DNA of 64,000 nucleotides from Candidatus Omnitrophota bacterium (lineage in GTDB: Bacteria; Omnitrophota; Gorgyraeia; Pluralincolimonadales; Pluralincolimonadaceae). Of the stretch, positions 1-19,556 are shown one piece after another. The notes under the pieces were generated by a model that saw only the letters and a list, made by a program, of their open reading frames with translations, did not search any database and was not told the origin of the DNA. Both the position numbers and the translations under genes were made by a program. Location: NCBI GenBank assembly GCA_041651455.1, contig JBAZJG010000008.1, positions 283 to 64,282 on the forward strand, given 5' to 3'. Numbering within the stretch: position 1 is the stretch's first letter; each line of letters opens with the position of its first letter.

Positions 1-230
1 AGGTAATCGGCGAACTCGGGCGTCGTGACCATCTGGTAGCCGCCCGCGACCTCGTATACCTTGAAGCTCCTGCCGAGCGTCTCGTATTCCGTCTGCAGTT
101 CGGCAAGCGCGGCCTTGATATCCTTCGCCTCTACCTCTTCGAGGACCTCCTTCATCTGCTCTATGGTTATCGGTTTCTCCGACGTGAAGAGCAGCGCCTC
201 TATTATCCTTTTCGCTTCAGACAGTTCCAT
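1..230 (-). CDS. scpB: Segregation and condensation protein B, N-terminal part (gene continues past the window edge)
   Basis: Reverse-complement translation from the ATG at 230 gives MELSEAKRIIEALLFTSEKPITIEQMKEVLEEVEAKDIKAALAELQTEYETLGRSFKVYEVAGGYQMVTTPEFADY. This is the typical ScpB winged-helix N-terminus (IEALLF..S..P; GGYQ.VT.PEF). It sits immediately downstream of scpA and overlaps the scpA stop by about 14 nt. It is not in the supplied ORF track because it is truncated by the window edge. Confidence 0.55.
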   Translation of the reverse strand, partial: MELSEAKRIIEALLFTSEKPITIEQMKEVLEEVEAKDIKAALAELQTEYETLGRSFKVYEVAGGYQMVTTPEFADY

Positions 231-1988: not shown

Positions 1989-1991
1989 ATT

Positions 1992-5342: not shown

Positions 5343-5354
5343 AGTTGTTCCCTT

Positions 5355-5819
5355 CTAAAATTCAAGATGCAGCTTCGCTTTCATGATCACTTCGCGCGGC
5401 ACGGACACTTCCCTGCCGTCGGGCAATTCCAGTTTTATGCTGTCTTCGCCGACCCATTTCAGCGCCGCCGAATACTCCCATTTCCCGTCCACGGGCGCGT
5501 TCAAAACCACGTCGAGCTCCTTGCCTATGACCCTCTCGAAATCGCTGGTCCTGGCAAGTTTCCTGTCGAGGCCCGGCGACTGCACCTCAAGCATGTAATG
5601 GCTCTCGATCACGTTCGCCTCTTCCAGCAGGCCTTCTATCCTGCGGCTCAGCGCGCCGCATTCGCCGATGCTTATCCCGCCCCTTTTATCGACGGTAAAG
5701 CGCATGACCATGCCGCCGCTCTCGTGCCTGTATGTCAGGTCGACAAGCTCGACGCCTGCCTCGGAAAGCGCCTGCGACGTAAGTTCCCTTACTTTTTCCA
5801 ATATAACGTTATCTTCCAT
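5355..5819 (-). CDS. rimP: Ribosome maturation factor RimP
   Basis: 154 aa with RimP/YhbC-family sequence (VELVDLTYRHESGGMVMRFTVDK...). It is the first gene of the rimP-nusA-infB operon. Confidence 0.9.
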   Translation of the reverse strand: MEDNVILEKVRELTSQALSEAGVELVDLTYRHESGGMVMRFTVDKRGGISIGECGALSRRIEGLLEEANVIESHYMLEVQSPGLDRKLARTSDFERVIGKELDVVLNAPVDGKWEYSAALKWVGEDSIKLELPDGREVSVPREVIMKAKLHLEF

Positions 5820-5856
5820 GCCTTTTTCGGGTTTTTCGGAAAAAAGACAACAAAAA

Positions 5857-5885
5857 AAGGAGGTAGAACTTACCCACTCCTCCTT
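5857..5885 (-). terminator. Intrinsic-terminator-like hairpin in the rimP operon leader, also just downstream of the stop of the upstream 675-aa gene. The stem is AAGGAGG/CCTCCTT, followed on the minus strand by a U-run (plus-strand A-run 5841-5858).
   Basis: The minus strand reads AAGGAGG-agtgggtaagttcta-CCTCCTT then TTTTTTGTTGTCTTTTTT: a 7-bp GC-rich stem, 15-nt loop and U-tract. It lies between the predicted promoter at 5913-5941 and the rimP ATG at 5819. Confidence 0.5.
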
Positions 5886-5912
5886 GTGTAGTGGACTTAA
5901 ATTGTACTTATA

Positions 5913-5941
5913 TTTATACTACGGACAGGCGCCGCTGTCAA
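5913..5941 (-). promoter_or_regulatory. Sigma70-like promoter for rimP-nusA-infB (-35 TTGACA 5941..5936, 17-nt spacer, -10 TATAAA 5918..5913)
   Basis: The minus strand reads aacccTTGACAgcggcgcctgtccgtagTATAAAtataag. Both hexamers are near-consensus with an optimal 17-bp spacer. It lies in the 127-bp gap upstream of rimP. Confidence 0.5.
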
Positions 5942-5946
5942 GGGTT

Positions 5947-7974
5947 TTATTCGACGATTTTTGAGTAAGATTCCGTCTCAATGGCCTTGTCCGTGAATAC
6001 GGTCCTGGAACCGGCGGCTTTCAGCGATTGCAGGCCGTCAATGACCGGATATACCGCCTTGTCAAGCCATAGCTGGACGAGCGCGGCGTCGAAATCCTTC
6101 TCCGGGCCGCCGCCCTGCCGGCCCCTCATCTGGAACTGGTCGAGCTGTTCCCTGTTCATCTCCAGCATCGACTCCTTCTCCTTGGCTTGCGCCACGAGCT
6201 CGGCCGCAGCTTCCGGCGTGTTGGCCGGGTCATTTATCTTCGCGTTAATGTCGGCCAGCTCTTTCTCGAGCGACTGTATCTCGGTATTCAGCTTATCCGT
6301 CTGCGCGGCCATCATCTCCTTGACCTTTTTCTGCTGTTCGGACATGAACGTGAGCCACCTTACGGCCCAATCGCAGATCCCCTTGCCCTTCTGCAGGATC
6401 GTGTCCACTTTAAGATAGACGACCTTGTTCGCCGGGTCCATAAGGCCGTTGTTGACCGACTTGAAATCCTCATTCTCAAAGAGCGATTTCGCGGCGCCGG
6501 AATACGAGTCCACCGAGCCCTTAATCGGCTCGCGCCCTAGCGAGAACAGGAAATAATCCCCGACGTAGCAGAACGCCGGCTGGAACGCCATGCCGAACGG
6601 CAGGTTCATGTATTTGATATCGACGCCCTTATAGGATTCGGACTGCATGCTCCCGCCCTGCGTGAACTGCGCGAGCATCTTGTCTATAGCTTCTTTCTTG
6701 TCGACCTTCAGGAAGACGACGAACTGCGGCATCGGTATCATCCCGTCAAGGTTTATGTCGGTCAGGCACATGCCCGTCTCGTCTCCGAGCGCCGGGATGA
6801 TGTCGTTCTCTATGCTTATGCCCATCTGTTTCTCGAATCCGGCTATCATGTCGTTGAAGGTCGGGCCCTGGTTCACCTTGGCCGCTTCATTGCCCATCTC
6901 TTCCTTTATGTATTTCCAGTACGCCTTCCATTCAAAGGTATCCCAGCTGTACCATATCGTATTTGCCGGGGCCAGTTTCATCGCCGTGTTCTTGCGCGGC
7001 TTGACCGAATAGAAATCCCTGAAGAACGGTATCAGCTTCGCCTTGTCGAGGGTTAACTGCATCCTCTCCTTGGTTATCTTGCCGGGATATTTCGCGTAGC
7101 TGAACGACTTGAACCCGCCGTAGACGCCGAGCGTCTTGTCGAGCTGGTCCCGGAAGATACGGCCCGGGTCCGGCTGGGCACCGCTTGCTTCCTTGGGCGC
7201 CGGTACGGCGTCCGCGATGTGCTTGATGCCTGCCATCATGAGCCCGATATCGCCGAAGGCGACCGTCTCCGCACCTTTAGGGAACTTCGCCATCGCGTCG
7301 GTATAGTCCTTGTCCTGCGCGAGCGAGAGGAACTTCTTGTCGGCCACGTCGCAGCAGGAGGTAGCCGCCTTCTTGCCCAGGCCTATGACGAGAATATCCT
7401 TTATCTGGACGTAGGCGATGCTGACCTTATCGTCGAGCTTGACGACGGTCAACTTCTTGCCCTTGTAATTCTCCTCCGCGACCTCGTATTTCCTGCCGGC
7501 CTTGTTGAATACCTTCGCGAGGAAATCTATGAATTTCGTCTCGGGCTTCACCCTCGTGGCCAGCGTGACATTCGAAGCCATTTCAATGACACCTGAGGGT
7601 GTCATCTCAACTTTGCCCGACGGGTAAACCGCTACCGCGATCTCCTTGCCGAAATATTTCTCGAGGACGAGCCCGCCTATGAAGCTTGAAAGCTCCGTCC
7701 GGGCGGCCCTGAAGTTCTCGACATCTTCCTTCTTCGCGCCGCTCTTCTCCATGAGCATCTCAATGTCTATCTTCTCGAGGTTCTTATAGAGACGCGAGGC
7801 CTTGAACTCCTTGACCTGCCTGTCCACCTCGGAGAACTTCATGAAAAAGACGGCATCCGCCGGAAGTACGGACTCGACGGGAGTCGGCTTGGACGCAAGC
7901 GTGAAAAGGACGGCCGCGGCAACCGCGACGGCCGCAACGGATATGGCTGTAATTATAATAGCGGATTTCTTCAT
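5947..7974 (-). CDS. Large N-terminally membrane-anchored extracytoplasmic protein with a C-terminal coiled coil (family not confidently recognised; native-GC copy of a paralog pair)
   Basis: 675 aa. It has an N-terminal TM segment (MKKSAIIITAISVAAVAVAAAVLF), a long globular region, and a C-terminal heptad-rich segment (LEKELADINAKIN...). About 58% GC. It is clearly paralogous to 10116..12125 (shared blocks SRLYKN, KEIAVAVYPSG, IPALGDE, LPFGMAFQPAFCYVGD, VRWLTF). Confidence 0.8.
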   Translation of the reverse strand: MKKSAIIITAISVAAVAVAAAVLFTLASKPTPVESVLPADAVFFMKFSEVDRQVKEFKASRLYKNLEKIDIEMLMEKSGAKKEDVENFRAARTELSSFIGGLVLEKYFGKEIAVAVYPSGKVEMTPSGVIEMASNVTLATRVKPETKFIDFLAKVFNKAGRKYEVAEENYKGKKLTVVKLDDKVSIAYVQIKDILVIGLGKKAATSCCDVADKKFLSLAQDKDYTDAMAKFPKGAETVAFGDIGLMMAGIKHIADAVPAPKEASGAQPDPGRIFRDQLDKTLGVYGGFKSFSYAKYPGKITKERMQLTLDKAKLIPFFRDFYSVKPRKNTAMKLAPANTIWYSWDTFEWKAYWKYIKEEMGNEAAKVNQGPTFNDMIAGFEKQMGISIENDIIPALGDETGMCLTDINLDGMIPMPQFVVFLKVDKKEAIDKMLAQFTQGGSMQSESYKGVDIKYMNLPFGMAFQPAFCYVGDYFLFSLGREPIKGSVDSYSGAAKSLFENEDFKSVNNGLMDPANKVVYLKVDTILQKGKGICDWAVRWLTFMSEQQKKVKEMMAAQTDKLNTEIQSLEKELADINAKINDPANTPEAAAELVAQAKEKESMLEMNREQLDQFQMRGRQGGGPEKDFDAALVQLWLDKAVYPVIDGLQSLKAAGSRTVFTDKAIETESYSKIVE

Positions 7975-8028
7975 GGGACTCTCCTTGGGTTAATTAAGAG
8001 GCATTATACCACAACTTTAGGGGAGTTT

Positions 8029-8292
8029 CTACGCCCATTCTGAGGCATATCTGTCAACAAGGTCTCTAATCATCCTCTGGTATTTCGTGTGATGCCTGTT
8101 TGCCTCACGCTTGAAAAATTCTATGCTAGATTTTTTCAGCGCGATTGTTATCTTCTGCGTCTCTTCCGACTTAGCAAGCTCAACCGGTGGCGGAAGAAGA
8201 TCCTTTATTCTCTTTAATCCGCCCACGGGCATGTCCGAAACATCAGTCCTCTTTTTCATAGTACGCTTTGCCCTTTCTCCAATAACCGGCAC
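8029..8292 (-). CDS. brnA: BrnA antitoxin (ribbon-helix-helix, type II toxin-antitoxin)
   Basis: 87-aa ORF. Its C-terminal half, QKITIALKKSSIEFFKREANRHHTKYQRMIRDLVDRYASEW, matches the BrnA pattern (ITIRLD..vl.wFK..A...G.gYQT.IN.iLR.y). It overlaps the upstream brnT 3' end by about 50 nt, so the true start may be the internal Met (MKKRTD or MPVGG). Confidence 0.75.
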   Translation of the reverse strand: MPVIGERAKRTMKKRTDVSDMPVGGLKRIKDLLPPPVELAKSEETQKITIALKKSSIEFFKREANRHHTKYQRMIRDLVDRYASEWA

Positions 8293-8527
8293 CGATTATC
8301 CTTATCATCCCCTGCCGGTATGTAAACCTTACTGTCATTACTTTATTCCCGGCCTTTCCGATACAGAAAAACCTTTCCTCATGCTCCGAATGGCCGGAAT
8401 CAACGTATATCTTTCTTTTTGTATCAAGGAAAGCTCGCGAGGCAATCTTAAAATCTACCCCGTGCTTCCTTATATTTTCCCTTTCTTTCGATTCGTCCCA
8501 GGTGAACATACCTGTGATTTTATCCAT
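8243..8527 (-). CDS. brnT: BrnT toxin (DUF497 ribonuclease, type II toxin-antitoxin)
   Basis: 94 aa: FTWDESKERENIRKHGVDFKIASRAFLD...DSGHSEHEERFFCIGKAGNKVMTVRFTYRQGMIRIIGAGYWRKGKAYYEK. This is the canonical BrnT/DUF497 signature (F.WD..K...N..KHGV.F.EA..vF.D......D..HS..EeR....G.......vvyt.R.....RIISAR.A...E...Y). The toxin-first gene order matches BrnTA. Confidence 0.8.
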   Translation of the reverse strand: MDKITGMFTWDESKERENIRKHGVDFKIASRAFLDTKRKIYVDSGHSEHEERFFCIGKAGNKVMTVRFTYRQGMIRIIGAGYWRKGKAYYEKED

Positions 8528-8531
8528 GTTT

Positions 8532-8560
8532 AGTATATCCTTTGGTCCTCATATTGTCAA
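8532..8560 (-). promoter_or_regulatory. Sigma70-like promoter directly upstream of brnT (-35 TTGACA 8560..8555, 17-nt spacer, -10 TATACT 8537..8532)
   Basis: The minus strand reads TTGACAatatgaggaccaaaggaTATACTaaacATG. The -10 ends 4 nt before the brnT ATG, which would give a leaderless or near-leaderless mRNA. The AAGGA inside the spacer could alternatively be the SD for a promoter lying further upstream in the AT-rich stretch 8560-8600. Confidence 0.4.
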
Positions 8561-8600
8561 TATTTATATACATACTATTATACATTATATTGGGCATAAT

Positions 8601-8642
8601 AAATCCCTCCTTTACCTATATAGACGGCATGAGGAGGGATTT
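8601..8642. repeat. Perfect 10-bp inverted repeat AAATCCCTCC (22-nt spacer) GGAGGGATTT between the stop of the 297-aa gene and the brnTA promoter
   Basis: Read directly: aaatccctcc tttacctatatagacggcatga ggagggattt, then tctttc. It could be a terminator hairpin for the upstream operon, or an operator for BrnA (RHH antitoxins bind palindromes). Confidence 0.6.
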
Positions 8643-8657
8643 TCTTTCAAATATTGC

Positions 8658-9533
8658 TTAAGGCGTATTATTAGTTTCGGTAATGCAAGTAAACTTGATT
8701 GGTAACGGGGCCGATTCAACTTCGAATCTTTTTCCTTTATATTTGCCTGATATTATGACAACTAAATCGTGCCTCTCTCCCGCTTTAACAAAATCGGAGA
8801 GTGGCTTGCATGGCCAGACGGAAGAATGCCTGTAATCCCAATCTAAGGAAAGGTCGTATGTGAATTCCTGCTCTTCGTTTGTCAGGGTAATACCTAATGG
8901 CACCGAGCGCCTGTGCGGACTGCTCCAAATCCTTTCCATATAAAAAAAGATGCTAACATCTTCTAATTCAACCGGTTCGCGGCTGCCCGTAGACAATAGC
9001 ACGCTGATCGGGATAGGGCCGAAAGGTGAGCATCTTTTGTTCTCTGTCTCAATACTCATGACGATGAAATCTTTTGGGACAATTGTCAAAAAAACCGTTT
9101 GCGACTTTATCCTGATCTTGTCATTGACCTCATATATTGCGGCAATGGAATAATCCCCCTTCCTGCTGAAATCATAGTAGCCCGATACTCTAATTGAAGT
9201 ATGAAATGTTCCTGATGGCGGGAAGCCTGGTTTTCTAATCAACTGTAATAAATCGCCATCGGGACCTTTAATTTTAAGATTCTCCACCAGTCCTTCTTTT
9301 TGGCAGGATATCTCGGATATTATATTTTTGTCCAATCCTTCAACCGGTTCAATATGAAATGCGAGTTCTATTGGTTCTCCTACATTGAATATCTCTTTCT
9401 GCAATTCAAGCCTGCAATGTAATCCGCCCGAAGAGATACCCCATTCTTCAGCAAAACATGTCATAAATATAAAATTGGCGGCGAATACCGATATTATCAA
9501 TAAATACTTCGTGTAATCCTTTTTAGGAGCCAT
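8658..9533 (-). CDS. Secreted hypothetical protein encoded directly after the PEP-CTERM protein gene
   Basis: The ORF is 8658..9551. The likely start is MAPKKDYTKYLLIISVFAANFIFMTCFA (signal peptide, possible lipobox) at 9533, 7 nt after the PEP-CTERM gene stop. About 40% GC. No recognisable domain. Confidence 0.55.
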   Translation of the reverse strand: MAPKKDYTKYLLIISVFAANFIFMTCFAEEWGISSGGLHCRLELQKEIFNVGEPIELAFHIEPVEGLDKNIISEISCQKEGLVENLKIKGPDGDLLQLIRKPGFPPSGTFHTSIRVSGYYDFSRKGDYSIAAIYEVNDKIRIKSQTVFLTIVPKDFIVMSIETENKRCSPFGPIPISVLLSTGSREPVELEDVSIFFYMERIWSSPHRRSVPLGITLTNEEQEFTYDLSLDWDYRHSSVWPCKPLSDFVKAGERHDLVVIISGKYKGKRFEVESAPLPIKFTCITETNNTP

Positions 9534-10116
9534 GGTTTTTCCTAAAACCAAGCAGCGGGAGGCCGGCGAGAATCAGTATAATGGTCGAGGGCTCGGGGAT
9601 AGGTGAAACCAGCAATTGGGCACTATGCCCCTCATTGTATTCCAGTGAGGAGAATATATCCGTTTTCGCATATTCGGAACGAATATTGAACCCGACAAAT
9701 GGGGTTGAAACTCCCTGCATAAAACTAGTAACTTCAAATAATGCGTCTTCGCCGTATCCAAGATCTTCCGGCAAAATAAGAACACCTAAATAATTCCCTG
9801 CATCATAATCAGATGATGTCAGCTGCCCGTCGCTGCTTCCATAGCCGTATATTTGAACGGTTTTACTCCAAAGAGGTAATCCGTATGGGTTGACAGACAA
9901 ATACGCTGTGCTTATTGGCCATAAAATCTGGCTGGTTGGGAATTCCACTACACCTCTTGTGGGTTCGCATGCCGTAAGATAGCAGTTGGTCAACACGCCC
10001 CCATCTAGGTACACTGAACCGTCATCGGAAGGATTGATGACTAACGCAGAAGCTGAAGCAACCTGAGTCATAGCCACGATAAATACGGCCATAATGCCGA
10101 ATTCGATCTTGTTCAT
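9523..10116 (-). CDS. PEP-CTERM sorting-domain protein (exosortase substrate)
   Basis: The C-terminus VSPIPEPSTIILILAGLPLLGFRKNHGS is a PEP motif, hydrophobic helix and basic cluster, which defines PEP-CTERM. The N-terminal signal peptide is MNKIEFGIMAVFIVAMTQVASASA. The ATG at 10116 overlaps the TAA stop of the upstream paralog by 1 nt (TAATG); the track start at 10140 is a TTG. Confidence 0.75.
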   Translation of the reverse strand: MNKIEFGIMAVFIVAMTQVASASALVINPSDDGSVYLDGGVLTNCYLTACEPTRGVVEFPTSQILWPISTAYLSVNPYGLPLWSKTVQIYGYGSSDGQLTSSDYDAGNYLGVLILPEDLGYGEDALFEVTSFMQGVSTPFVGFNIRSEYAKTDIFSSLEYNEGHSAQLLVSPIPEPSTIILILAGLPLLGFRKNHGS

Positions 10117-12125
10117 TATTTGAAAAAGGTCTCTGTACAAATCACGTTCTCCGTGAAGACTGTCTTTGAACTTGAGACATTATTCGAAGAAAGGCCTTCC
10201 ATGATAGGATAGGCCGCCTTTTCCACCCAAAGCCTTATCAAGGGCACATCCATATCCTGTCTCGTTACCGCGACACGATGTTTCTCCTGCTCTTCCAAGT
10301 GGGCCAACTGCTCTTTGTCGATCTTCAACATGGAATTCTTGTCCCATATCTTTAAATCGAGTTCAGATTTTACCTCTGCCAAAACAGCGGGGTCGGCACG
10401 CTGCGCTTTCATATCTGCCAGCTCCTTTTCCAGTTCCTTGATGCCTGCCCTTAACCTGTCCATCTGGAGCAATATCATCTCTTCGTATTTCTTCTGTTTT
10501 TCGTAGTACGCCTTGTTCTCTTCGGAAATATACGTAAGCCACCTCAGACCCCAATCGCAAAAATCCCTGGCTTCCCGCAACAAAGCATCGGTATCCACAA
10601 AACGAACCTGGTTTGCCGGCTTGTCGGGGTTGCTACTAACAAGCCTGAAATCCTCGCTGTCAAGAAGCGACTTCGCGGATCCGGAACAAGAATCTATGGA
10701 ATTCTTTAATGGCATGCGGCCCAAAGAGAGCAAAAGATTATCTCCAACGTAACAATATGCCGGTTGGAACGCGAGGCCGAATGGGAGGTCCAGGTATTTT
10801 ATCTCAACATTATTGTACGTCTCCGTTTTCACGGCCTCCTCCCCTTCGATGTCACTCCGGAAGAATTTGCCCAAAACCAGGTCTATCGCCTGTTTGTCGT
10901 TTACTTTGACTATATAGATGAACTGCGGTGATGGTATAAGGCCGTCGTAATTCACGTCTATCAGGCACAAGGCCCCTTCATCCCCGAGAGCGGGTATCAG
11001 GTCATTCTCTATGCTGAAGTCCACCCAACTCTCGAACTCGGCAACGATATCGTCAAATCCGTGGGACTCAACCCCTTCCGGCGTTCCTTTTATCATGGCT
11101 TCCTTCAGGTACTGCCAGTATGCCCTCCACGCGACCGTATCCCATCCGTACCATATCGCATTAGGCGGGATGAACTTAAGCGTATTGTTCCCGCGCGGGG
11201 CCACTGAATAGCTTTCCCGGAGGAACGGGATCATCTTGGATCTGTCGATTTTTACGGTCATAACGCTCTTTTTTATCTCCCCGGGATATCTGGCGTAGAA
11301 GAAGGTCCCGAAACCGCCGTATTCGCCCAGGCGCAGGCCCATATTTTCCTTGAACGCTTTTAATATATCCGCTGATATCCCTTTCCCGGCCGGTTCCGGG
11401 ATGGCGGTTACGGCATTTTTCAATCCTTCCGCTATTCTCCCGATATCACCGAAAGCGGCCATCTCGGCGCCTTTCTCAAGCCCTGACACCGCCCCAATGA
11501 AATCCTTGTCCTGCGCCAACGCGGGAATTTTCCTGCCGGCGGCATCATAGCAGGACATGACAACCATCTTATCCGTGCCCGCCACCATCACATCCTTGAT
11601 CCGGACCATAAACACGCTCGTCCTGTCCCCTATCTTCACGACGGATATCTTCCTGCCGCTGCAGTCCTCTTCTTTCTCCTCAAATATCTTTCCCGGTTTT
11701 TTGAACATAATGGCAAACAGGTCGGCTATTTTTGATTCCGGTTTCACCTTCGCGGCGAATAATACGCCCGAAGGATACACGGCAACGGCTATCTCCTTCC
11801 CGAAATACTTCTCAAAAGGAAGCCCGTCGATAAAACCCGATATGTCCGCTTTCCATACTCCTACAGCTTGCGCCTGTTCCTTCTTAGCTCCGCTCTTTTC
11901 AAGCAGCATTCCTATATCGATGGCTTCCACATTCTTATAGAGCCTCGATGACCTAAACTCCTCGAATTGCCTGTCGGCATCGAACAATTTCACGAAGAAG
12001 ACCGGGCCGGCAGGCAGCGCGGACTCGATCGCCTGCGGTTTTGCGATATAACCGACATAAATGCCGGCCGCCGTCGCCGCAATGGCAATAAAAATGACTG
12101 TGACTGCTATAAACGGTTTTTTCAT
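10116..12125 (-). CDS. Large membrane-anchored coiled-coil protein, lower-GC xenologous paralog of 5947..7974
   Basis: 669 aa with the same architecture (N-terminal TM, shared motif blocks, C-terminal coiled coil ELEKELADMKAQ...). About 48-50% GC versus about 58% for the other copy. Its start overlaps the TPR gene stop (ATGA at 12122-12125). Confidence 0.8.
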   Translation of the reverse strand: MKKPFIAVTVIFIAIAATAAGIYVGYIAKPQAIESALPAGPVFFVKLFDADRQFEEFRSSRLYKNVEAIDIGMLLEKSGAKKEQAQAVGVWKADISGFIDGLPFEKYFGKEIAVAVYPSGVLFAAKVKPESKIADLFAIMFKKPGKIFEEKEEDCSGRKISVVKIGDRTSVFMVRIKDVMVAGTDKMVVMSCYDAAGRKIPALAQDKDFIGAVSGLEKGAEMAAFGDIGRIAEGLKNAVTAIPEPAGKGISADILKAFKENMGLRLGEYGGFGTFFYARYPGEIKKSVMTVKIDRSKMIPFLRESYSVAPRGNNTLKFIPPNAIWYGWDTVAWRAYWQYLKEAMIKGTPEGVESHGFDDIVAEFESWVDFSIENDLIPALGDEGALCLIDVNYDGLIPSPQFIYIVKVNDKQAIDLVLGKFFRSDIEGEEAVKTETYNNVEIKYLDLPFGLAFQPAYCYVGDNLLLSLGRMPLKNSIDSCSGSAKSLLDSEDFRLVSSNPDKPANQVRFVDTDALLREARDFCDWGLRWLTYISEENKAYYEKQKKYEEMILLQMDRLRAGIKELEKELADMKAQRADPAVLAEVKSELDLKIWDKNSMLKIDKEQLAHLEEQEKHRVAVTRQDMDVPLIRLWVEKAAYPIMEGLSSNNVSSSKTVFTENVICTETFFK

Positions 12126-13165
12126 GGGGTTGGCCTTTTTTTAGGGATCTGCAGTACATTATCTTTGTTCTCTTCCGCCTTCCTGAAATACATATCCGCT
12201 TTCTCGCGGTCGCCTTTTTCCGCGTATATCTCCCCGAGATACTGGTAAACCTCATACGATATAGAATTAAGACCGACGGCCGTTTCCAGGTACTCCCTCG
12301 CGCTCTCCTTGTCTCCGAGCCTGTAAGCGGTAATGCCGAGATTGTCCCATGTGTCTACGCCATACGGGTTATATATAACTGACATCGTGAAATCGCTCAA
12401 TGCCTGCTTGTAATTGCCTTGGCAAAAATACGTGAACCCGCGGTTATTCATGCCTTTATAGCTGAATGGATCTATAACAAGCGCCCGGTTATAATCCCTG
12501 ACAGCCTTATCAAACTCGCCCATATCCAGATATACCCCGGCACGGGCATAATATCCGCTAAACTCTTTCGGTCTCAGTTTTATTAACTCGCTAAAATCCT
12601 TGACGGCTTTTTCATATTCGCCCGCTTCCGAATAAGATATCCCGCGATTCCATAGCGTATTCGCGCTTACCGGGTCAGCGCTCAATGCCTCATTATAGCT
12701 TTCTATTGCAGAATTATACTCGCCTACATCGGTCATGGCGTTGCCCAGGTTATTATACGGAAGTTTGAAATTCGGGTTCATTTCGACCGCTTTTTGGAAG
12801 TCCGCAATAGCTTTTTCATTCTCCCCTTTTTGCCTGTACGCGCAACCGCGGTTATAATAGAGGTTCGGATTCCTGGAATTTGCCTCAAGGCCTTTTGAGT
12901 ATTCGGCAATGGCCTTGTCGTAATCACCCATTTTTATATACGCGTTCCCTGCCATTTTATAGGCATCATAGAACATGGGGTTTACCTCTATGGCCTTATC
13001 GAACTCCTTGATAGCTTCTTCATACCGGTGTTTGTTGAGATGGACGACGCCGCGGTTGAAATACTGGTTTGCGGTAAGTTTTTCTTCCCTTACTTCTTCA
13101 GCAAGGCAGCTTGAGGAGAGAATACATGCTGTTACGTAGAAAAGTAAAACCTTTGAAAGTTTCAT
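12122..13165 (-). CDS. Secreted tetratricopeptide-repeat (TPR) protein
   Basis: 347 aa. Signal peptide MKLSKVLLFYVTACILSSSCLA, then about eight 34-aa TPR units (recurring AxxxYxxAIxxxP / NxG.AY patterns). Confidence 0.85.
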   Translation of the reverse strand: MKLSKVLLFYVTACILSSSCLAEEVREEKLTANQYFNRGVVHLNKHRYEEAIKEFDKAIEVNPMFYDAYKMAGNAYIKMGDYDKAIAEYSKGLEANSRNPNLYYNRGCAYRQKGENEKAIADFQKAVEMNPNFKLPYNNLGNAMTDVGEYNSAIESYNEALSADPVSANTLWNRGISYSEAGEYEKAVKDFSELIKLRPKEFSGYYARAGVYLDMGEFDKAVRDYNRALVIDPFSYKGMNNRGFTYFCQGNYKQALSDFTMSVIYNPYGVDTWDNLGITAYRLGDKESAREYLETAVGLNSISYEVYQYLGEIYAEKGDREKADMYFRKAEENKDNVLQIPKKRPTP

Positions 13166-13205
13166 TTCGCACCTCGAAACGTTTTTAATTCTTTTCTAAT
13201 TAATA

Positions 13206-13244
13206 GGGACGCATGACCTGGGACGCCCCGTTATGACCTGTCCC
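13206..13244. promoter_or_regulatory. Direct-repeat element in the TPR operon upstream region: GGGACGC-ATGACCTG ... GGACGCC-ccgtt-ATGACCTG-TCCC (ATGACCTG copies at 13213 and 13233, 20-bp spacing; GGGAC/GTCCC inverted ends)
   Basis: Read directly from the 146-bp gap between the hydrolase stop and the TPR gene start. The two-helical-turn spacing suggests a dimeric or tandem DNA-binding regulator site. A 12-bp perfect palindrome AACGGAACCGTT follows at 13273-13284. Confidence 0.35.
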
Positions 13245-13311
13245 TTTTATCGCATCCCATATTTCTTATAAAAACGGAACCGTTGGCACTATTAGCAGTT
13301 TCATTTTCGCA

Positions 13312-14238
13312 TCACAAAAGTTCCCTGGCCGCATTAAGGGTATCGTCGCCGTAAGCCATGTGGTAGAAATGCCCCTGCCCCTGTATGGGGGTGAGCTTCG
13401 CGTTCGGGACGGTCTTCGAAAGCCACTCGCTGAACATCAGGGGGACCCAGCGGTCCTCCGTGCCGTGGCGTATATCGACGCGCATCTTTATCTTGCTGAG
13501 GTCGAAGCCCCATTCAAGGTAGATAACCTGCGCGTCGTATGACGGCCCTTTGGCCCCATTCCTGAACAATTCCTGGAAATCCCTCATCAGGATATTGGCC
13601 ATTTCGGGCATTAGGAACAGGTCCATGTCGGGCTTGCACATGCTAGAGCCCATCATCTTTACGAACGCCTGGGGGTTCTTCATCGTCTTCATTTGTAATC
13701 CTATAAGGGAGAACGGTATCTGGAAGAGCCACAGCGGGAGTTTCGCGCCGATCTTCGCGTAGAAACGGTCCATCGTCCCGAGCTTCTTGAGCGCCTCGGG
13801 GTCCCTGTAGAGAGGCACCGCGCCCGCAAGGTCAACGGCGAACAAAAGCCGGTCCGGAATGGAGTATGCGCATGCCAATACCGTAGGGCCGCCGCCGGAT
13901 ATCCCCATGACGCCGAACTTGCCGATGCCTAGATGGTCCGCAAGCGCAGCGATGTCCGCGGCTCCGTCGAGTATCTTCCTGCCGGGCAGGAAATCCGACT
14001 GCCCCACTCCGGGACGGTCGGGCACTATAATGCGGAAATTCTTCCTCTTTGCCGCGTGATGAAGCAGCATTACGTGGATATGCGAGCCGGTCCCGTGGGC
14101 AAATATTATCGGCGTCCCGGACGGATCGCCGTATTCGTAATACGCCAGGCGGCGCCCGCCGTCAAACGCAAGGAATTTTACTTTCGCCTGAAGCTCCTCT
14201 ATCTCTTCCTGGCTGATCAAGTCGGGCTTGTCGGGCAT
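13312..14238 (-). CDS. Alpha/beta-fold hydrolase
   Basis: 308 aa. Nucleophile elbow GISGGG (G-x-S-x-G), HGTGS oxyanion region and a C-terminal His. A strong SD (GGAGG) lies upstream at about 14245-14249. Confidence 0.8.
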   Translation of the reverse strand: MPDKPDLISQEEIEELQAKVKFLAFDGGRRLAYYEYGDPSGTPIIFAHGTGSHIHVMLLHHAAKRKNFRIIVPDRPGVGQSDFLPGRKILDGAADIAALADHLGIGKFGVMGISGGGPTVLACAYSIPDRLLFAVDLAGAVPLYRDPEALKKLGTMDRFYAKIGAKLPLWLFQIPFSLIGLQMKTMKNPQAFVKMMGSSMCKPDMDLFLMPEMANILMRDFQELFRNGAKGPSYDAQVIYLEWGFDLSKIKMRVDIRHGTEDRWVPLMFSEWLSKTVPNAKLTPIQGQGHFYHMAYGDDTLNAARELL

Positions 14239-14250
14239 AATTCCTCCTGA

Positions 14251-14799
14251 TTAAAATACGCTCTCCAGACAAAAACACGTCAATTCCTCTTCTTTGCCCC
14301 ATTCCACACAGGTAGGTTTGTTCCTGCACTCGGGGCATAGCAGGGTAATGTCGTCCTTATTAATATCAAGTGTACCACGCGTCTGGTGAAGGTCAAATAG
14401 CAATTTCAGGTACTTGCCGGCCACGAGGCGATGCAGGCTGTCCTTCTTCTTGAGCCCTAACCATTGGAAGACGCCCCGGTCGTTGCGTGAAGTATTGCAG
14501 GTAGGACACGACAGAACCGAATTATCCGCCGAATCGGGGCCGCCTCGGCTTCGTGGGATGAGGTGATCGACTTGTAGGCCTTCGAGCGCGCCGCAAAAGA
14601 CGCACTCCTTATCCAACTCCTGCTCCCTCTGCCACTCCCTTATCGTGCCGGACATCGTAGCGCTGCCGTCGCGCAGGGCCTTGAACCGGTCCGTGACAAA
14701 TCCGTAGTTGATGTTGCCCTTGAACGCGCTACGGGATATAAGCTTGGCGTATTCGTAGAGGATTTCTTCTTTTATGGTTTTGACGTAGGGTGGGGGCAT
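14251..14799 (-). CDS. HNH endonuclease with extra Cys-rich zinc-ribbon segments
   Basis: 182 aa. HNH core: CVFCG...QVDHLIPRSRGGPDSADNSVLSCPTCNTSRNDRG. A second Cys cluster follows (CPECRNKPTC...CFC). The roughly 70-aa N-terminus is unassigned. It sits at the edge of the low-GC defence-like block. Confidence 0.7.
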   Translation of the reverse strand: MPPPYVKTIKEEILYEYAKLISRSAFKGNINYGFVTDRFKALRDGSATMSGTIREWQREQELDKECVFCGALEGLQVDHLIPRSRGGPDSADNSVLSCPTCNTSRNDRGVFQWLGLKKKDSLHRLVAGKYLKLLFDLHQTRGTLDINKDDITLLCPECRNKPTCVEWGKEEELTCFCLESVF

Positions 14800-14870
14800 A
14801 GTATTGAGTTAGTTAATAATTTAAATATGTTGTCGCTAAATTTATTTCGATCTGTTCTTCCTCATTTCTA

Positions 14871-16565
14871 TTAGATTTTATACTTTTCGCTACATTGCTT
14901 AACTAATTTGTTCGATTTCGATAATTCGTTATCACTTAAATCTAATTTAAGGGAATCTATTATTTTGATTATACTCACTATTGCTTTGTTGAATTTTTTA
15001 TTTGAATTGATTATTTTTAAGCAATTTTGACAATATTCTTCGGCTTTCTTGCTTTCAAACGGAGGACATTTTTCTTTCATAATTTCATAGCGCAGCATCA
15101 TTAGGATAAAATATCTCAGCTTCTTGAACTTCCTATCTAGCTGCCCACGTCTGAATAGTTTATCTATGTTATATAACGCATAGGCGGACGTGTAGTACGG
15201 TAACATATAGTGATTATCTTTAAAGAGGTCGGGACCGAATTCAGAAAATAAGGTTCCAAAATATCTTGTTGCCATATCTGGTTTGTCAAAATAAAAACTG
15301 GCCATAGTCTTTATTTGGGTTGTTTTATCAATTATTCGTTTCTTCTCTACTCCTTTACTATTATATTGTTTAGAACGCCTTTCATAATAAAGCCTTTGCT
15401 TTTCTGGAAAAGTAGTATAATAGTCTTCCAAGCTTTTTTGAAAGTCTGAAAATGCTATCAAATCTTGTTCTTTTATTTCAGTTTGTCTGTTTGTAGACCG
15501 AATTACTTTAGATGTTAAATCTTTATTGTTTGTGGATATTAATTTTAGGGGCAATTTTACTTTTGGTGACACTAATGATCTGTTTTCAAACAATACATGA
15601 GATGTTTGGCAACCATTAATTATTTGGTAGCTGCTTATGGTAAATCTATCTCTTGTGGTTAGCATTGATTCAGCAACTATCGTTATACCATTGTTCAAAA
15701 CAACAAAGGCTTCTTTATCTTTTGTTTTTAAAGTATTTTGAATTTCCAAATTGACCTTATTGTCTCCCTGAAAATCTCTTACATTATCATAAAATACATT
15801 GGGAATTAAATCGCCGTTATCATCTGTCATTAATTTAATTATTGTTTCGGCCTCGATAATTCCCAAATAAGATTCTGCCACTCCAGTTATTACCGGCAGT
15901 GTAACTCTATTCGGGAATTCGAAAGCTTTTGTAACCGCCTGACCTATTTTTTTGTAAATGCTCTGTATCTCCCTAGCGTCGACAAGGCTTATTATAGTAT
16001 TAGAAAACAAGTTCTCATTTTCGATATTACTTTTCATCTCTTCTGTCTTAGCTTCGATATTATCATCTTCTGTCTTCACACCAAGAGTCACATAATATAG
16101 ATGGCATATTGGTTTCTCCTTAAGCAAATTCGAATTATCTATCAATTTGTTAAATAGCCTGATCTTTGAACGGGCTATTTTAGGCCATTTTATTTTAGGA
16201 TTTTCACTAACAAAATCTGAAACGGCCCAACCAAAGTTTCCAATTTCTTTTGTTTCGAAGCTTTTAGAGGTCTTAGATTGAATAAAAACAACCTCTGCGT
16301 GAACATCTCTATGCGATTTCAAGAAGTCTTCCAGCATATCTTGAGTTTCAATAACTTGTCTATTCAATATCAAAGCAAAGCCATCTAAGCCCAGAGCATC
16401 GTCTTTTCCTATATTTAATTCCTCGATATCGAACCGTTCTTCAGTCTTATTTTCAAGTAATGCAAAATTTACAAAATGCTCAAATTGCGTAGACTCATTT
16501 TTTTCATTTTCCAGCCCATTCGATGATAAAAATTCATTAAGATAACTTCTGGTAATTCTATCCAT
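14871..16565 (-). CDS. AIPR-like abortive-infection (phage resistance) family protein (family assignment tentative)
   Basis: 564 aa with no Walker motifs. The central block VVLNNGITIVAE ... YQIINGCQT resembles the conserved NG.QT core of the AIPR family; this is my recollection and no search was run. It is very AT-rich (about 33% GC) and has a strong SD (GGAGGAAAAC) before the ATG. Confidence 0.5.
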   Translation of the reverse strand: MDRITRSYLNEFLSSNGLENEKNESTQFEHFVNFALLENKTEERFDIEELNIGKDDALGLDGFALILNRQVIETQDMLEDFLKSHRDVHAEVVFIQSKTSKSFETKEIGNFGWAVSDFVSENPKIKWPKIARSKIRLFNKLIDNSNLLKEKPICHLYYVTLGVKTEDDNIEAKTEEMKSNIENENLFSNTIISLVDAREIQSIYKKIGQAVTKAFEFPNRVTLPVITGVAESYLGIIEAETIIKLMTDDNGDLIPNVFYDNVRDFQGDNKVNLEIQNTLKTKDKEAFVVLNNGITIVAESMLTTRDRFTISSYQIINGCQTSHVLFENRSLVSPKVKLPLKLISTNNKDLTSKVIRSTNRQTEIKEQDLIAFSDFQKSLEDYYTTFPEKQRLYYERRSKQYNSKGVEKKRIIDKTTQIKTMASFYFDKPDMATRYFGTLFSEFGPDLFKDNHYMLPYYTSAYALYNIDKLFRRGQLDRKFKKLRYFILMMLRYEIMKEKCPPFESKKAEEYCQNCLKIINSNKKFNKAIVSIIKIIDSLKLDLSDNELSKSNKLVKQCSEKYKI

Positions 16566-16651
16566 GTTTTCCTCCAGTTATATTTTGCTTTTAGTGACTC
16601 ATGACTTTAGAACGCTTCACTATAGAACTTGCCTCTTTTGACACGTCTCGT

Positions 16652-16879
16652 TTATTCTTTCTTTTTTGACCTCACGATCCTTATATCCCCTTTTAAATCT
16701 TTAACTTCATAACTTTCCGAAAGCAATAATCTTAATTTATTGGAATTGTAGGTTTTACTCCAAAAGGGTCTATCAAAATGCACTTCACCTCGCGCTGAAC
16801 CGGCATGGTGAATATGGAGAATCCTTCCTTTTTCAGATAAAAGAGATAAATACCTTTTACAATATTTAATTTTTATCAT
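16652..16879 (-). CDS. Small hypothetical protein (75 aa) between the AIPR-like gene and the 2-TM protein gene
   Basis: The ORF MIKIKYCKRYLSLLSEKGRILHIHHAGSARGEVHFDRPFW... has His-rich and basic character and low GC. It could be a small nucleic-acid-binding partner or a gene remnant. No confident homology. Confidence 0.3.
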   Translation of the reverse strand: MIKIKYCKRYLSLLSEKGRILHIHHAGSARGEVHFDRPFWSKTYNSNKLRLLLSESYEVKDLKGDIRIVRSKKKE

Positions 16880-16954
16880 CGTTCTCGCCTAGCCCATTTT
16901 ACCGTTTGTTTAAGTGGCAGAATCCAAGTACAATTAATCCATTTATTAGAATAT

Positions 16955-17731
16955 TTAACTAATACCGAATTCCTTTTTAAGACCATTAAAATCGTATATC
17001 TGTATATTTACTATCATATCTTTTCCTAATAGAAATTGATCAATTCTATTTTTTAATATTTCCTTTTCTTCATCATTAATCGGCGTTACGATTATAAGAT
17101 AAAAGAATAAATCTCTCTCGCTTTTTTCTAGGTTTCTCCATATATCCTCAAAATACTTTAAAGTTTTTCCTAGCCCATTAAATGGCGTATTTAATCTTGG
17201 AAAGTACTTTACTTCAAATACTGAGAACTGCAAGCTTGAATTTATTATGCCATCAGCGTAATATTTATTGCCTTTAAGTTCAAAACTTCTTTGTTTAAGA
17301 AACATATCTCCATAATCGCTTTCTAACTTTTTAAGAGCTAACTCTTCAGCAAGAAAATATTCAACTTTCGGATTTAATATTATACTTGCAGTAGCACTAC
17401 TTGTTTTATCTTCGGTAATATCTGAAACATCTTTATCCTTTTTATCTATTACATCTTTTATAGTTAAAGGTTTAACATTTTTTATCAAACCAGAAAATGC
17501 TTCATCTGTCTTAAAATCTGAAGGTGCGTATAGCACATGGTGTTTAAGGATTAATACTGAAAAAAACAGCATAACAAGCAAAACAGGGAATATCATGACA
17601 AACCAAACAAACAAATTTTGTATATTATCCGGAAGAATAGGCAATACGGCGCTTCCGCAAATCTCTGATATGCCGGCAAAGATTGCGATAATTGTTAAAG
17701 GATTTTTTATAGTATTTTTGGGTAAGTACAT
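16955..17731 (-). CDS. Membrane protein with two N-terminal TM helices and a cytoplasmic domain of about 170 aa (unrecognised; effector-like)
   Basis: 258 aa. TM1 is LTIIAIFAGISEICGSAVLPIL and TM2 is FVWFVMIFPVLLVMLFFSVLIL, followed by a charged soluble domain. About 30% GC, an SD (GAGGTG) upstream, and a TTGACA hexamer about 45 nt upstream. Confidence 0.6.
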   Translation of the reverse strand: MYLPKNTIKNPLTIIAIFAGISEICGSAVLPILPDNIQNLFVWFVMIFPVLLVMLFFSVLILKHHVLYAPSDFKTDEAFSGLIKNVKPLTIKDVIDKKDKDVSDITEDKTSSATASIILNPKVEYFLAEELALKKLESDYGDMFLKQRSFELKGNKYYADGIINSSLQFSVFEVKYFPRLNTPFNGLGKTLKYFEDIWRNLEKSERDLFFYLIIVTPINDEEKEILKNRIDQFLLGKDMIVNIQIYDFNGLKKEFGIS

Positions 17732-17831
17732 AATCGCACCTCAATCATCTAAAGCTAATTTACATTGCACTTCTGTCAAACTGTTAATGTACGAGGGGCG
17801 CAGTCAATATTTTCTGCTTAAGATTATTTTG

Positions 17832-19556
17832 CTATGCTTGCGATGACAATAATTCCTCAACTTCTCCTATTGTTTCGTCTATCTTGATTACTTTAATTTC
17901 TTTCGTCTTGCGGTCCTTGATCTCCACCTCGCCGGTGGCGATGCGTTTTTCACCAATGATTATTTGTATCGGGAAGCCGATGAGGTCGGAATCTTTGAAC
18001 TTAACGCCGGCGCGTTCGGGGCGGTCATCGAGGATGCATTCTATACCGGCGGAAGTCAGCTCGTTGTAAATCTTTTCGGCCGCTTCCATAGATGCCTGGT
18101 GCGCAGTGTTGAGCGGGAGTATTGCGACTGTGTAAGGCGCTATGGTCTTGTTCCAGATAATGCCGTCCTTGTCGTGGCTCTGCTCGATGAGCGAGGCGAC
18201 GATACGGTTGACGCCTATGCCATAGCAACCCATGATGCACGGCTTTTCCTTGCCGTTCTCGTCGAGGAAATTACATTTTAGCTTGGTGGAATATTTGGTG
18301 CCGAGTTTGAAGACCTGCCCTACCTCGATGCCGTGCTTGAAGAGCAGTTTCTTGCCGCCGTGCGTGTCGCCTTCGACGGCGTTGCGGATGTCTGTCACTA
18401 TAATATTAGCGCCCGTGAGGGGGAAATCCCTTCCCGGCACGACGTTCTTCGTGTGGTAGTCGGTCTTGTTGGCACCGGTAACACCTATCGCCATCGCGGC
18501 TACGGCGTGGTCTATTATAATCTTCGAGGCCTTCCCGGCAAGCCCTACAGGCCCTGCAAAGCCGACCTTGGCGCCCGTGATTTTCTCGATCGCTTCCGGT
18601 GAGGCGAGCTCATTATGCGCGCCGCCGAGCGCCTGTGTCAGTTTCTCGGGGTTGAGGTCGTGGTCGCCGCGCACAAGCGCCACGACGATATCCTTTCCGA
18701 CCGAGAATATGAGCGTCTTTATCATCTCCTTCGGCTTCGACTTCAGGAACGAGCAGACCGCTTCGATAGAACCGACGTTCGGAGTATGCACATCCTCGGC
18801 CTTCGGGGCGTTGGCAACAGCCGGCTCTTTCGGCAGCGGGTCTACCGCGGCCTTTTCGAGGTTCGCGGCGTAGCTGTTATCTTCTGTGTAGACAATGATG
18901 TCCTCGCCGGAGTCGCAGGGAGCCGTGAACTGGTGCGAACCCGAGCCGCCCATCTCGCCCGACTCGGCCTCCACTATCACGAAATCGAGCCCGCAGCGCG
19001 TGAATATGCGCTTGTAGGTCTCGTACATGTTCCAGTATTCCTTGTCGAGGCACTCGGCCGTCGGGTGGAAACTGTAAGAATCCTTCATTATGAATTCGCG
19101 GCTGCGCAGGACACCGAAGCGCGGGCGGAACTCGTCGCGGAACTTGAAAGATATCTGGTAGAGGTTGACCGGGAGCTGCTTATACGACTTGATCTCGCCT
19201 GCGGCGACACTCGTTATTACCTCCTCTGCCGTCGGAGCGATGACGTTCGTATGCCCGTGGCGGTCCTTGAATTTTGCCATCGTCTCGCCGTAATCCCTAT
19301 CTCGGCCGGTCTGCTGCCAGAGCTCTATCGGCTGGACCGCAGGAAGCATGACCTCGAGTGCGCCCGCCTTGTCCATCTCCTCGCGGATGATCGCCTCGAC
19401 CTTATTTATGACGCGCATACCGAGAGGCAAATATGAATACGAGCCTGTCGCGAGCTTGCGTATGAGCCCCGCGCGGATCATTAGCTTGTGGCTTAGGATC
19501 TCGGCTTCCGCCGGGTCCTCTTTAAGCGTCGATATAAGCGTCTTTGTCCATCTCAT
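17832..19556 (-). CDS. proS: Proline--tRNA ligase (bacterial type with INS/editing domain)
   Basis: 574 aa. N-terminus TKTLISTLKEDPAEAEILSHKLMIRAGLIRKLATGSYSYLPLG, class II motifs and a C-terminal anticodon-binding domain. Confidence 0.95.
   Translation of the reverse strand: MRWTKTLISTLKEDPAEAEILSHKLMIRAGLIRKLATGSYSYLPLGMRVINKVEAIIREEMDKAGALEVMLPAVQPIELWQQTGRDRDYGETMAKFKDRHGHTNVIAPTAEEVITSVAAGEIKSYKQLPVNLYQISFKFRDEFRPRFGVLRSREFIMKDSYSFHPTAECLDKEYWNMYETYKRIFTRCGLDFVIVEAESGEMGGSGSHQFTAPCDSGEDIIVYTEDNSYAANLEKAAVDPLPKEPAVANAPKAEDVHTPNVGSIEAVCSFLKSKPKEMIKTLIFSVGKDIVVALVRGDHDLNPEKLTQALGGAHNELASPEAIEKITGAKVGFAGPVGLAGKASKIIIDHAVAAMAIGVTGANKTDYHTKNVVPGRDFPLTGANIIVTDIRNAVEGDTHGGKKLLFKHGIEVGQVFKLGTKYSTKLKCNFLDENGKEKPCIMGCYGIGVNRIVASLIEQSHDKDGIIWNKTIAPYTVAILPLNTAHQASMEAAEKIYNELTSAGIECILDDRPERAGVKFKDSDLIGFPIQIIIGEKRIATGEVEIKDRKTKEIKVIKIDETIGEVEELLSSQA

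Follow-up and report, generated by a model that had tools for sequence, protein, structure and literature searches.

A widespread two-helix membrane module joined to a predicted PD-(D/E)xK nuclease domain, encoded in an AT-rich island of a Candidatus Omnitrophota genome

Membrane-tethered nucleases have been recognised only recently as proteins that tell self from non-self DNA by location instead of by sequence (SNIPE, 2026; Epona, 2024). SNIPE, or PD-lambda-1 (Nature 2026), consists of one transmembrane (TM) helix, a DUF4041 domain and a GIY-YIG nuclease, and it cuts phage DNA during injection; its DUF4041 binds both DNA and the tape-measure protein, the untethered enzyme is toxic, and the N-terminal TM region is its least conserved part (PMC13190303). 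Epona is a validated single-gene anti-phage cassette of a Vibrio cholerae integron, in which two TM helices precede an Mrr_cat domain; it is described as a combination of the Pfam Mrr_cat and a holin domain, almost restricted to V. cholerae (bioRxiv 10.1101/2024.07.02.601686). Here we analyse a 258-residue protein of similar layout, encoded at positions 16955–17731 of a 64,000-nucleotide stretch of DNA (the window) from a Candidatus Omnitrophota bacterium (GenBank assembly GCA_041651455.1, contig JBAZJG010000008.1). A literature search brought up SNIPE and Epona and no paper describing this family or its membrane module, which is not proof that there is none.

As with SNIPE, we are dealing with a single stand-alone polypeptide in which a linker joins an inner-membrane anchor at the N-terminus to a DNase on the cytoplasmic side (anchoring, orientation and activity all being predicted here), and which is widely scattered; the proposed logic is also alike, in that the tether would prevent self-cleavage and position the nuclease at the site of DNA entry. 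The parts, however, are different. The 258-residue protein has two TM helices and a PD-(D/E)xK fold, with neither DUF4041 nor GIY-YIG detected by Pfam or PADLOC, and its TM region is both the most conserved and a separable part. We regard the resemblance as analogy, not homology. With Epona the protein shares the single-gene format and the union of a 2-TM N-terminus with a restriction-fold nuclease, and one relative likewise sits in an integron-like array (locus L001, see below). Yet our protein matches neither Mrr_cat nor a holin model at E ≤ 1, and its family spans many phyla. The comparison with Epona is one with its published description; neither Mrr_cat nor a holin model occurs among the 25 families most often matched, at E ≤ 0.1, by 66 relatives. 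The family is much larger and taxonomically broader than SNIPE or Epona; it presumably follows the same logic with unrelated parts, and it extends to tailed and filamentous phages.

The reading frame lies on the minus strand, which the initial annotation of this locus had left unstated. It is a real gene under purifying selection and not a chance open reading frame (ORF), because it has at least 650 homologues at E ≤ 1e-3 in a clustered protein database, the family comprises at least 3,382 representative clusters at 50% identity, and comparison with a syntenic copy gives a ratio of nonsynonymous to synonymous substitution rates (dN/dS) of 0.20 in the absence of indels. This copy, on an independent metagenomic contig (L096), includes the 3' end of proS, the 2-TM gene, an ORF of 75 amino acids (orf75) and the start of an AbiU gene, with 87.7% nucleotide identity to the window across the locus. 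The 2-TM gene itself differs by 77 substitutions and not a single indel, whereas the intergenic gaps are more divergent and contain the indels. A protein identical to the 258-residue product is also encoded by a Candidatus Omnitrophota metagenome-assembled genome (P0001 in the clustered protein database).

As judged from family alignments, the best-conserved and defining part of the family is the TM hairpin module at its N-terminus. From the N-terminal side, this comprises a KNPLT cap, a first helix (TM1, residues 11–32) with a glutamate at mid-membrane (E23), a short loop, Q38, a second helix (TM2, approximately residues 38–63) and the motif VLYAPSDF. Kyte–Doolittle windows above 1.6 are centred on residues 20–25 and 44–61, while the AlphaFold2 model, which is based on an alignment of 66 full-length relatives (A1), has helices at residues 11–32 and 35–62. 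The two closely spaced N-terminal helices reported in the initial annotation are therefore borne out. Fifteen columns of A1 are invariant (N10, P11, L12, F18, A19, E23, Q38, F48, F56, F57, L67, Y68, P70, S71 and D72), and E23, Q38, Y68, P70 and D72 are retained in all 318 non-redundant sequences of the family. A search of the PHROGs collection returned phrog_26238, matching residues 7–106 only (E 1.7e-27).

The module appears in several molecular settings. In Bacillota it is fused to winged-helix DNA-binding domains that score above the Pfam cut-offs (MarR_2, HTH_24, HTH_IclR); some members add to the module and the nuclease domain a further C-terminal tail, apparently winged-helix-like as judged from the sequences, and in other architectures the partners are TPR-like or one of several unassigned domains. 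The module also stands alone, mostly in prophages, as proteins of 60–130 amino acids, and a query with the N-terminal 82 residues returned only such short proteins, none of them annotated in Pfam. On this sequence evidence, the module is a domain that can be separated from the rest of the protein and that Pfam, NCBIfam and PADLOC do not contain. It is also the most interesting feature of this tethered-nuclease-like protein, being unannotated and unusually conserved. With regard to topology, the net charge is +2 on the N-terminal side of TM1 and −1 in the inter-helix loop; because of this bias and of the fusions to DNA-binding domains, an N-in/C-in arrangement with a predicted cytoplasmic C-terminal domain is favoured, the positive-inside signal being weak.

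About 195 residues follow the TM helices. In the AlphaFold2 model they form a charged linker of low confidence (approximately residues 72–120, with pLDDT below 50 at 72–80 and 109–118) and then a folded domain (121–258), modelled at a pLDDT of 88–96 against a mean of 82 for the whole protein. The initial annotation had found in this soluble part no motif that could be placed, and had recommended a structural comparison; when AlphaFold2 and Foldseek were applied, a PD-(D/E)xK nuclease fold emerged, and with it an E...D...ExK motif conserved in A1. The topology is alpha-beta-beta-beta-alpha-beta-alpha-beta, the main elements being helix 121–143, strands 144–152, 155–164 and 169–176, helix 185–199 and strand 208–216. 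E129 falls in the first helix, D160 in the second strand and E173-x-K175 in the third, so that both the core fold and the arrangement of the catalytic motif are those of the PD-(D/E)xK superfamily.

All confident Foldseek matches in the PDB were PD-(D/E)xK nucleases (probability 0.97–1.00). The best were the nuclease domains of Can2 and Card1 (best E 9e-5), and the further matches included AF1548, HamA of the Hachiman system, McrC and the endonuclease of the R2 retrotransposon, followed at lower rank by XisH, Nt.BspD6I and Shedu; matches in BFVD, a library of viral structures, included annotated endonucleases and PD-(D/E)xK proteins. Sequence profiles, by contrast, are almost blind to this domain, and its identification therefore comes through fold comparison only: Pfam, NCBIfam and PADLOC searches with the 258-residue protein gave nothing significant, and sequence searches of the PDB, with the single protein or a family profile, gave matches at chance level only. 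Among the 66 relatives, nine showed sub-threshold matches to NERD (PF08378; best E 0.0062) and a few matched PDDEXK_9 or XisH, likewise below threshold; on no nuclease family did any of the 66 score better than E 0.006. NERD, Mrr_cat, the AF1548-like proteins, XisH and Can2/Card1 share with our protein the core fold and the E/D/ExK arrangement. The protein itself, however, does not match NERD at E ≤ 1, below the gathering threshold, which leaves only a distant superfamily relationship, and the families just named, as modelled, are devoid of the 2-TM module.

The soluble domain is thus modelled as a divergent member of the restriction-endonuclease fold with an apparently competent active site. 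Across the 318 family sequences, E173 is present in 274 and K175 in 242 (the counts for the other two positions are in Table 1); the complete tetrad is intact in 205 (64%), or in 235 (74%) if the EDER and EDDK variants are included. An intact tetrad points to DNA cleavage, a predicted activity, as the output of the protein, rather than to membrane perturbation alone.

Members of the family occur in Pseudomonadota, Bacillota, Bacteroidota, Planctomycetota, Verrucomicrobiota, Acidobacteriota, Chloroflexota, Patescibacteria (the candidate phyla radiation) and Omnitrophota. They are also sparse: a pattern-based scan of representatives of 185,579 species confirmed at least 193 loci, a lower bound. 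A distribution so wide and so sparse fits mobile cargo and not a housekeeping membrane protein.

Nine loci with Pfam-annotated neighbours were considered in detail. In L001 (ENA ERZ21873832, positions 1–16798 of a 3.86-Mb contig) the homologue comes first after the integrase (a tyrosine recombinase) of an integron-like array. Single genes on the same strand flank the recombinase, with repeats of about 100–280 nt that have the ends GTTATCC.../...GGATAAC between most of them, and the cargo is rich in defence and toxin–antitoxin genes, including Mrr_cat, NucS_C-like, DUF2971, MazE/PIN, SLFN_AlbA_2, HEPN and PemK. A second relative is found in another array, where repeats separate several genes. 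Elsewhere, the family gene lies 33 bp 3' of HsdR, in an island with TIR, M78/DUF4411 and type I restriction–modification genes; directly follows a RelE/MqsA pair, with a reverse transcriptase nearby; is two genes away from AbiEi; follows a nucleotidyltransferase (NTP_transf_2/Polbeta) gene; or adjoins IS21 or resolvase/NikA genes. Among 148 immediate neighbours from 76 genomes, the raw counts include 5 ATPases of the AAA_21/SMC_N type and 6 matches to the PADLOC model mad3, and some neighbours match the PADLOC models of PtuA, AriA and GajA. Since relatives occupy defence and mobile-element contexts, a role in defence is plausible.

No conserved neighbour was found within up to four genes on each side of 78 loci, the largest cluster of neighbours being represented at 7 of the 78, with varying offsets. 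A downstream ORF of 130–200 amino acids, seen in several contexts, was considered as a partner and discarded, as all-against-all BLAST showed these ORFs to be unrelated. The only recurrent synteny that we saw was in three Alphaproteobacteria (L027, L043 and L073), which share a gene for 416–451 amino acids upstream and one for 484 amino acids downstream; this is probably a shared mobile element or a case of lineage-specific conservation.

Phages carry the module, too. By tblastn, homologues with 44–57% identity over the module were found in Pseudomonas phages F116 and H66, Rhizobium phage RHEph21 and Elizabethkingia phage EKP1, all of them annotated as hypothetical proteins only; these, like phrog_26238, are true homologues of the N-terminal module. 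The F116 protein, gp41 (L093, positions 3980–4891), is encoded between the portal and head-morphogenesis genes, and so is its H66 counterpart. In RHEph21 (QXV74673) the D...EVK motif is intact, while hypothetical protein 30 of EKP1 is the module alone, in 103 residues. Seventy IMG/VR contigs with the module were sorted into 37 with the module only, about 12 with other C-termini and 21 with full-length copies. The last occupy moron sites, beside CI-like repressors, an integrase, a RecT/exonuclease module, the large terminase or tail fibres.

In tailed prophages, the module-only genes adjoin cassettes of holin, endolysin and spanin genes and precede HNH/small-terminase genes. Directly 3' of them there is often a gene for a conserved, soluble Cys-rich protein of 88–107 amino acids (phrog_26297), as in L152:8294-8557, L157:8294-8557, L145:7081-7350 and about 16 more IMG/VR loci. 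This suggests a two-gene unit, in which the cytoplasmic partner would be supplied in trans instead of being fused. In Vibrio parahaemolyticus (L191/L192, positions 6001–6324), a module-only homologue of 107 amino acids and a small partner are encoded just downstream of Zot, within a filamentous prophage (Rep_trans, DUF1293, Zot) that has no lysis cassette. A purely lytic role of the module is argued against by its presence, with the partner, as cargo of a non-lytic prophage.

The proximity to lysis genes bears on what the hairpin does. One explanation, akin to that of the initial annotation, is that the protein is a membrane-perturbing effector of abortive infection, whose hairpin forms pores or depolarises the membrane in the manner of a holin, with the C-terminal DNA-binding domains (nuclease fold, winged helix-turn-helix) serving to sense foreign DNA and, in response, to set off oligomerisation and damage to the membrane. 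The module is indeed the invariant part of the family, with its 15 invariant positions and its mid-membrane E23; it can stand alone as proteins of about 100 residues with a short tail; it is joined also to non-catalytic domains (winged helix-turn-helix, TPR-like) and to degenerate nuclease domains; and the authors of the Epona study call the 2-TM part of their protein a holin domain (bioRxiv 10.1101/2024.07.02.601686). Against this, no holin or SLATT model of Pfam, PHROG or PADLOC was matched by this protein at E ≤ 1, nor do such models figure among the 25 families that the 66 relatives matched most often at E ≤ 0.1. The phages with module-only genes near their lysis cassettes already carry a recognised holin, phrog_217, which speaks against a class II (2-TM) holin, and the filamentous Vibrio prophage has the module-only gene without being lytic. 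Besides, the sequences of pore formers tend to be poorly conserved, which is not so for the module, and a pure sensor would not need the catalytic tetrad that is intact here and in most relatives. We therefore consider a pore-forming effector unlikely. The SLATT proteins and the 2-TM effectors of CBASS and Pycsar do resemble our protein in having N-terminal or stand-alone TM helices and in occurring in defence contexts, but here a nuclease domain is attached, and no cyclase, reverse transcriptase or sensor gene is conserved at the 78 loci. Of the earlier proposal, then, a 2-TM membrane protein next to an Abi gene in a horizontally acquired AT-rich block, with a plausible role in defence, finds support; the SLATT-like identity and membrane perturbation as the sole output do not. 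The module may still be membrane-active, being conserved far more strictly than an anchor needs and occurring on its own in phages.

A function outside defence would also fit some of the phage data. The protein might be a phage-derived accessory factor, involved in lysis timing, in DNA processing at the membrane or in lysogenic conversion, or else a decaying remnant without function, given that the module is common in prophages, including sites beside lysis cassettes and in a filamentous phage. Decay is hard to reconcile with the dN/dS of 0.20 and the intact active site, and full-length copies are found on bacterial chromosomes in integron-like arrays and in restriction–modification and toxin–antitoxin islands, so that we rate this explanation as very improbable.

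On balance, it appears probable that the protein is an autonomous, mobile, membrane-anchored DNase that acts in single-gene defence or superinfection exclusion. We infer this function, including the N-in/C-in topology, the nuclease activity and the action on incoming DNA, with the computed support of an ORF under purifying selection, a TM hairpin, the fold and motif of a nuclease, and genes that lie among mobile elements, defence genes and prophages without any conserved partner. The hairpin would hold the cytoplasmic PD-(D/E)xK domain by a flexible linker some 40 residues long, and E129, D160 and E173-x-K175 would form a metal-binding site. The tether would keep the DNase at the inner membrane, distant from the nucleoid, and because it is held there the enzyme would meet mainly incoming DNA, from phage injection or conjugation. 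The hairpin would do more than anchor, for instance by oligomerising or by sensing or targeting some membrane event or site; its hyper-conservation, its buried invariant glutamate and its reuse without a nuclease all demand a role beyond anchoring. Should nuclease-dependent protection prove true, a compact single-gene system of about 260 amino acids would join the catalogue of defences, and it would be a tractable model for the coupling of a membrane event to DNA cleavage.

Several observations weigh against a membrane-anchored defence nuclease. The activity itself is a computational prediction, and the positive-inside signal that supports the topology is weak. Between about a quarter and a third of the family members have a degenerate catalytic tetrad, and the module exists without any nuclease; because of both facts, DNA cleavage cannot be common to the whole family. 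A case in point is gp41 of F116, which retains the TM module while S...EVF replaces D...ExK in its active site; the F116/H66 homologue could have been inactivated, serve as a decoy or have taken on a new function. The association of the immediate neighbours with defence in the 76 genomes is modest (as raw counts), many of these neighbours being housekeeping enzymes. The analogy with SNIPE may mislead, since conservation is lowest in the TM region of SNIPE and highest in that of our protein. Finally, the 2-TM gene, orf75 and the AbiU gene are syntenic in two genomes, with no terminator predicted between them, an arrangement considered further below.

The toxicity of untethered SNIPE through chromosome cleavage (PMC13190303) also lends itself to a different model, in which the hairpin holds the C-terminal domain, be it a nuclease or a regulator, in an inactive state until it is set free to act on the nucleoid and phage DNA, for instance by intramembrane proteolysis or by damage to the membrane in the course of infection, the outcome being abortive infection. 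The C-terminal domains (nuclease, winged helix-turn-helix) are all predicted to act on DNA, the TM segments contain the nearly invariant and helix-breaking P11, P31 and P49, and a long disordered linker follows them. The model is purely inferential, however; nothing conserved in the neighbourhood encodes a protease or another partner, and the module-only proteins have nothing to release. Such a latent enzyme seems to us improbable.

The hairpin could be a membrane module, spread across bacteria and carried by phages, that has so far gone unrecognised, is active in its own right and couples a membrane event to interchangeable cytoplasmic DNA-targeting domains; we advance this only tentatively, as a rather unlikely possibility. 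The activity could be, for example, sensing or occupation of the DNA entry site, sensing of membrane energisation through the buried glutamate, or assembly of an oligomeric ring, and the proposed interchangeable partners are the PD-(D/E)xK nuclease, the winged helix-turn-helix domains and, in trans, the Cys-rich protein. If true, these proteins would make up a new class of immunity or exclusion factors, modular and coupled to the membrane, that hosts and temperate phages alike employ.

The coordinates of the features in the window are collected in Table 1.

Table 1. Features of the 2-TM gene, its product and its neighbours, in window coordinates
Feature	Position	Strand	Basis and remarks
2-TM PD-(D/E)xK protein, ORF	16955..17731	minus	ATG start, 258 codons + TAA; from the ORF list
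Conserved membrane module, residues 7–79	17495..17713	minus	conservation in A1, AlphaFold2 helices, hydropathy, phrog_26238
Variable charged linker, residues 80–120	17372..17494	minus	length-variable and poorly conserved in A1
PD-(D/E)xK nuclease-fold domain, residues 121–258, predicted cytoplasmic	16958..17371	minus	AlphaFold2 and Foldseek
E129 codon, acidic residue of helix alpha-1	17345..17347	minus	≥90% in A1; E in 273/318; codon checked
D160 codon, 'D' of PD	17252..17254	minus	invariant in A1; D in 289/318; codon checked
E173-V174-K175 codons, ExK of strand beta-3	17207..17215	minus	≥90% in A1; codons checked
Shine–Dalgarno-like GAGGTG	17737..17742	minus	5 nt 5' of the ATG; direct sequence reading
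TTGACA hexamer, possible −35	17774..17779	minus	direct sequence reading; no convincing −10
orf75, 75 amino acids	16652..16879	minus	between the 2-TM gene and AbiU; intact in L096, dN/dS 0.19
AbiU/AIPR gene, 564 amino acids	14871..16565	minus	PADLOC AbiU 3.6e-125 over the full length; Pfam AIPR 1.2e-41

The 2-TM gene belongs to a block of low GC content (about 33%, roughly from position 14800 to 17900) between flanks of 55–58% GC. It is, as the initial annotation had stated, the first gene of this AT-rich block, that is, the first after proS (17832–19556) along the direction of transcription. The Shine–Dalgarno-like sequence and the TTGACA hexamer that had been listed upstream of it are both present, but the promoter implied by the latter is unproven, because no acceptable −10 hexamer lies downstream and a consensus scan for sigma-70 promoters makes no call there.

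The same annotation had cast the protein as a candidate effector of the island and had suggested a co-occurrence analysis. We carried out such an analysis with the neighbouring genes in both directions, and no co-occurrence was detected. At 80 genomic loci of the family, examined with 10-kb flanks, none (0/80) had a homologue of the AbiU, orf75 or HNH gene of the window; conversely, neither tblastn nor hmmsearch with the A1 profile detected a family member at any of 19 metagenomic AbiU loci (32–75% identity, flanks of up to 6 kb; 0/19), including one in which a 75%-identical AbiU is preceded by 6 kb of upstream flank. AbiU is moreover documented as a single-gene system, in which AbiUi alone gives resistance in Lactococcus (PMC13064643). 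Together with the lack of a conserved neighbour, these data contradict the role of island effector.

The arrangement in the window could still be a lineage-specific three-gene system, with the 2-TM protein, possibly together with orf75, as a dedicated partner or effector of AbiU. The three genes are on the same strand, at about 33% GC, separated by 75 and 86 bp, and no terminator is predicted between them; a second sample shows the arrangement again, 88% identical in nucleotide sequence, and all three genes are under purifying selection. The shared strand, the short gaps, the missing terminator and the synteny in one close relative make some local functional cooperation possible. The two syntenic copies, however, are close relatives and count as a single observation, AbiU suffices on its own in Lactococcus, and orf75 has a homologue (P0244) in the company of neither of the other two genes. 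In view of these points and of the negative co-occurrence data, we take a dedicated AbiU partnership to be highly improbable. Our preferred reading of the block is a small island of two or three independent defence-type genes, and not an operon of AbiU plus effector; we propose that the membrane-anchored nuclease adjoins AbiU merely as co-cargo of the same island.

Only three other homologues of orf75 were found among 5.8 billion proteins. The one mentioned above, P0244, has a PIN gene on one side and a type I restriction–modification system on the other, and orf75 may be a small regulator associated with defence islands. It was also considered as a counterpart of the small phage partner phrog_26297, and this was ruled out, the two having no similarity.

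As to the island itself, we looked for flanking direct repeats or att sites at its boundaries and found nothing convincing. The AT-rich composition begins within the final ~100 nt of proS (17832–17950, minus strand), where the GC fraction is about 0.33–0.40 versus 0.55 upstream, and this AT-rich 3' segment is also kept in L096 (84% identity). Possibly the island inserted into proS and took the place of its 3' end.

Directly downstream of AbiU, a gene for a 182-residue HNH endonuclease occupies positions 14251–14799 of the minus strand (Pfam HNH, 5e-13). It lies outside the AT-rich block, since its GC content is host-like, and its product is similar to the HNH domains found in Cas9 and IscB.

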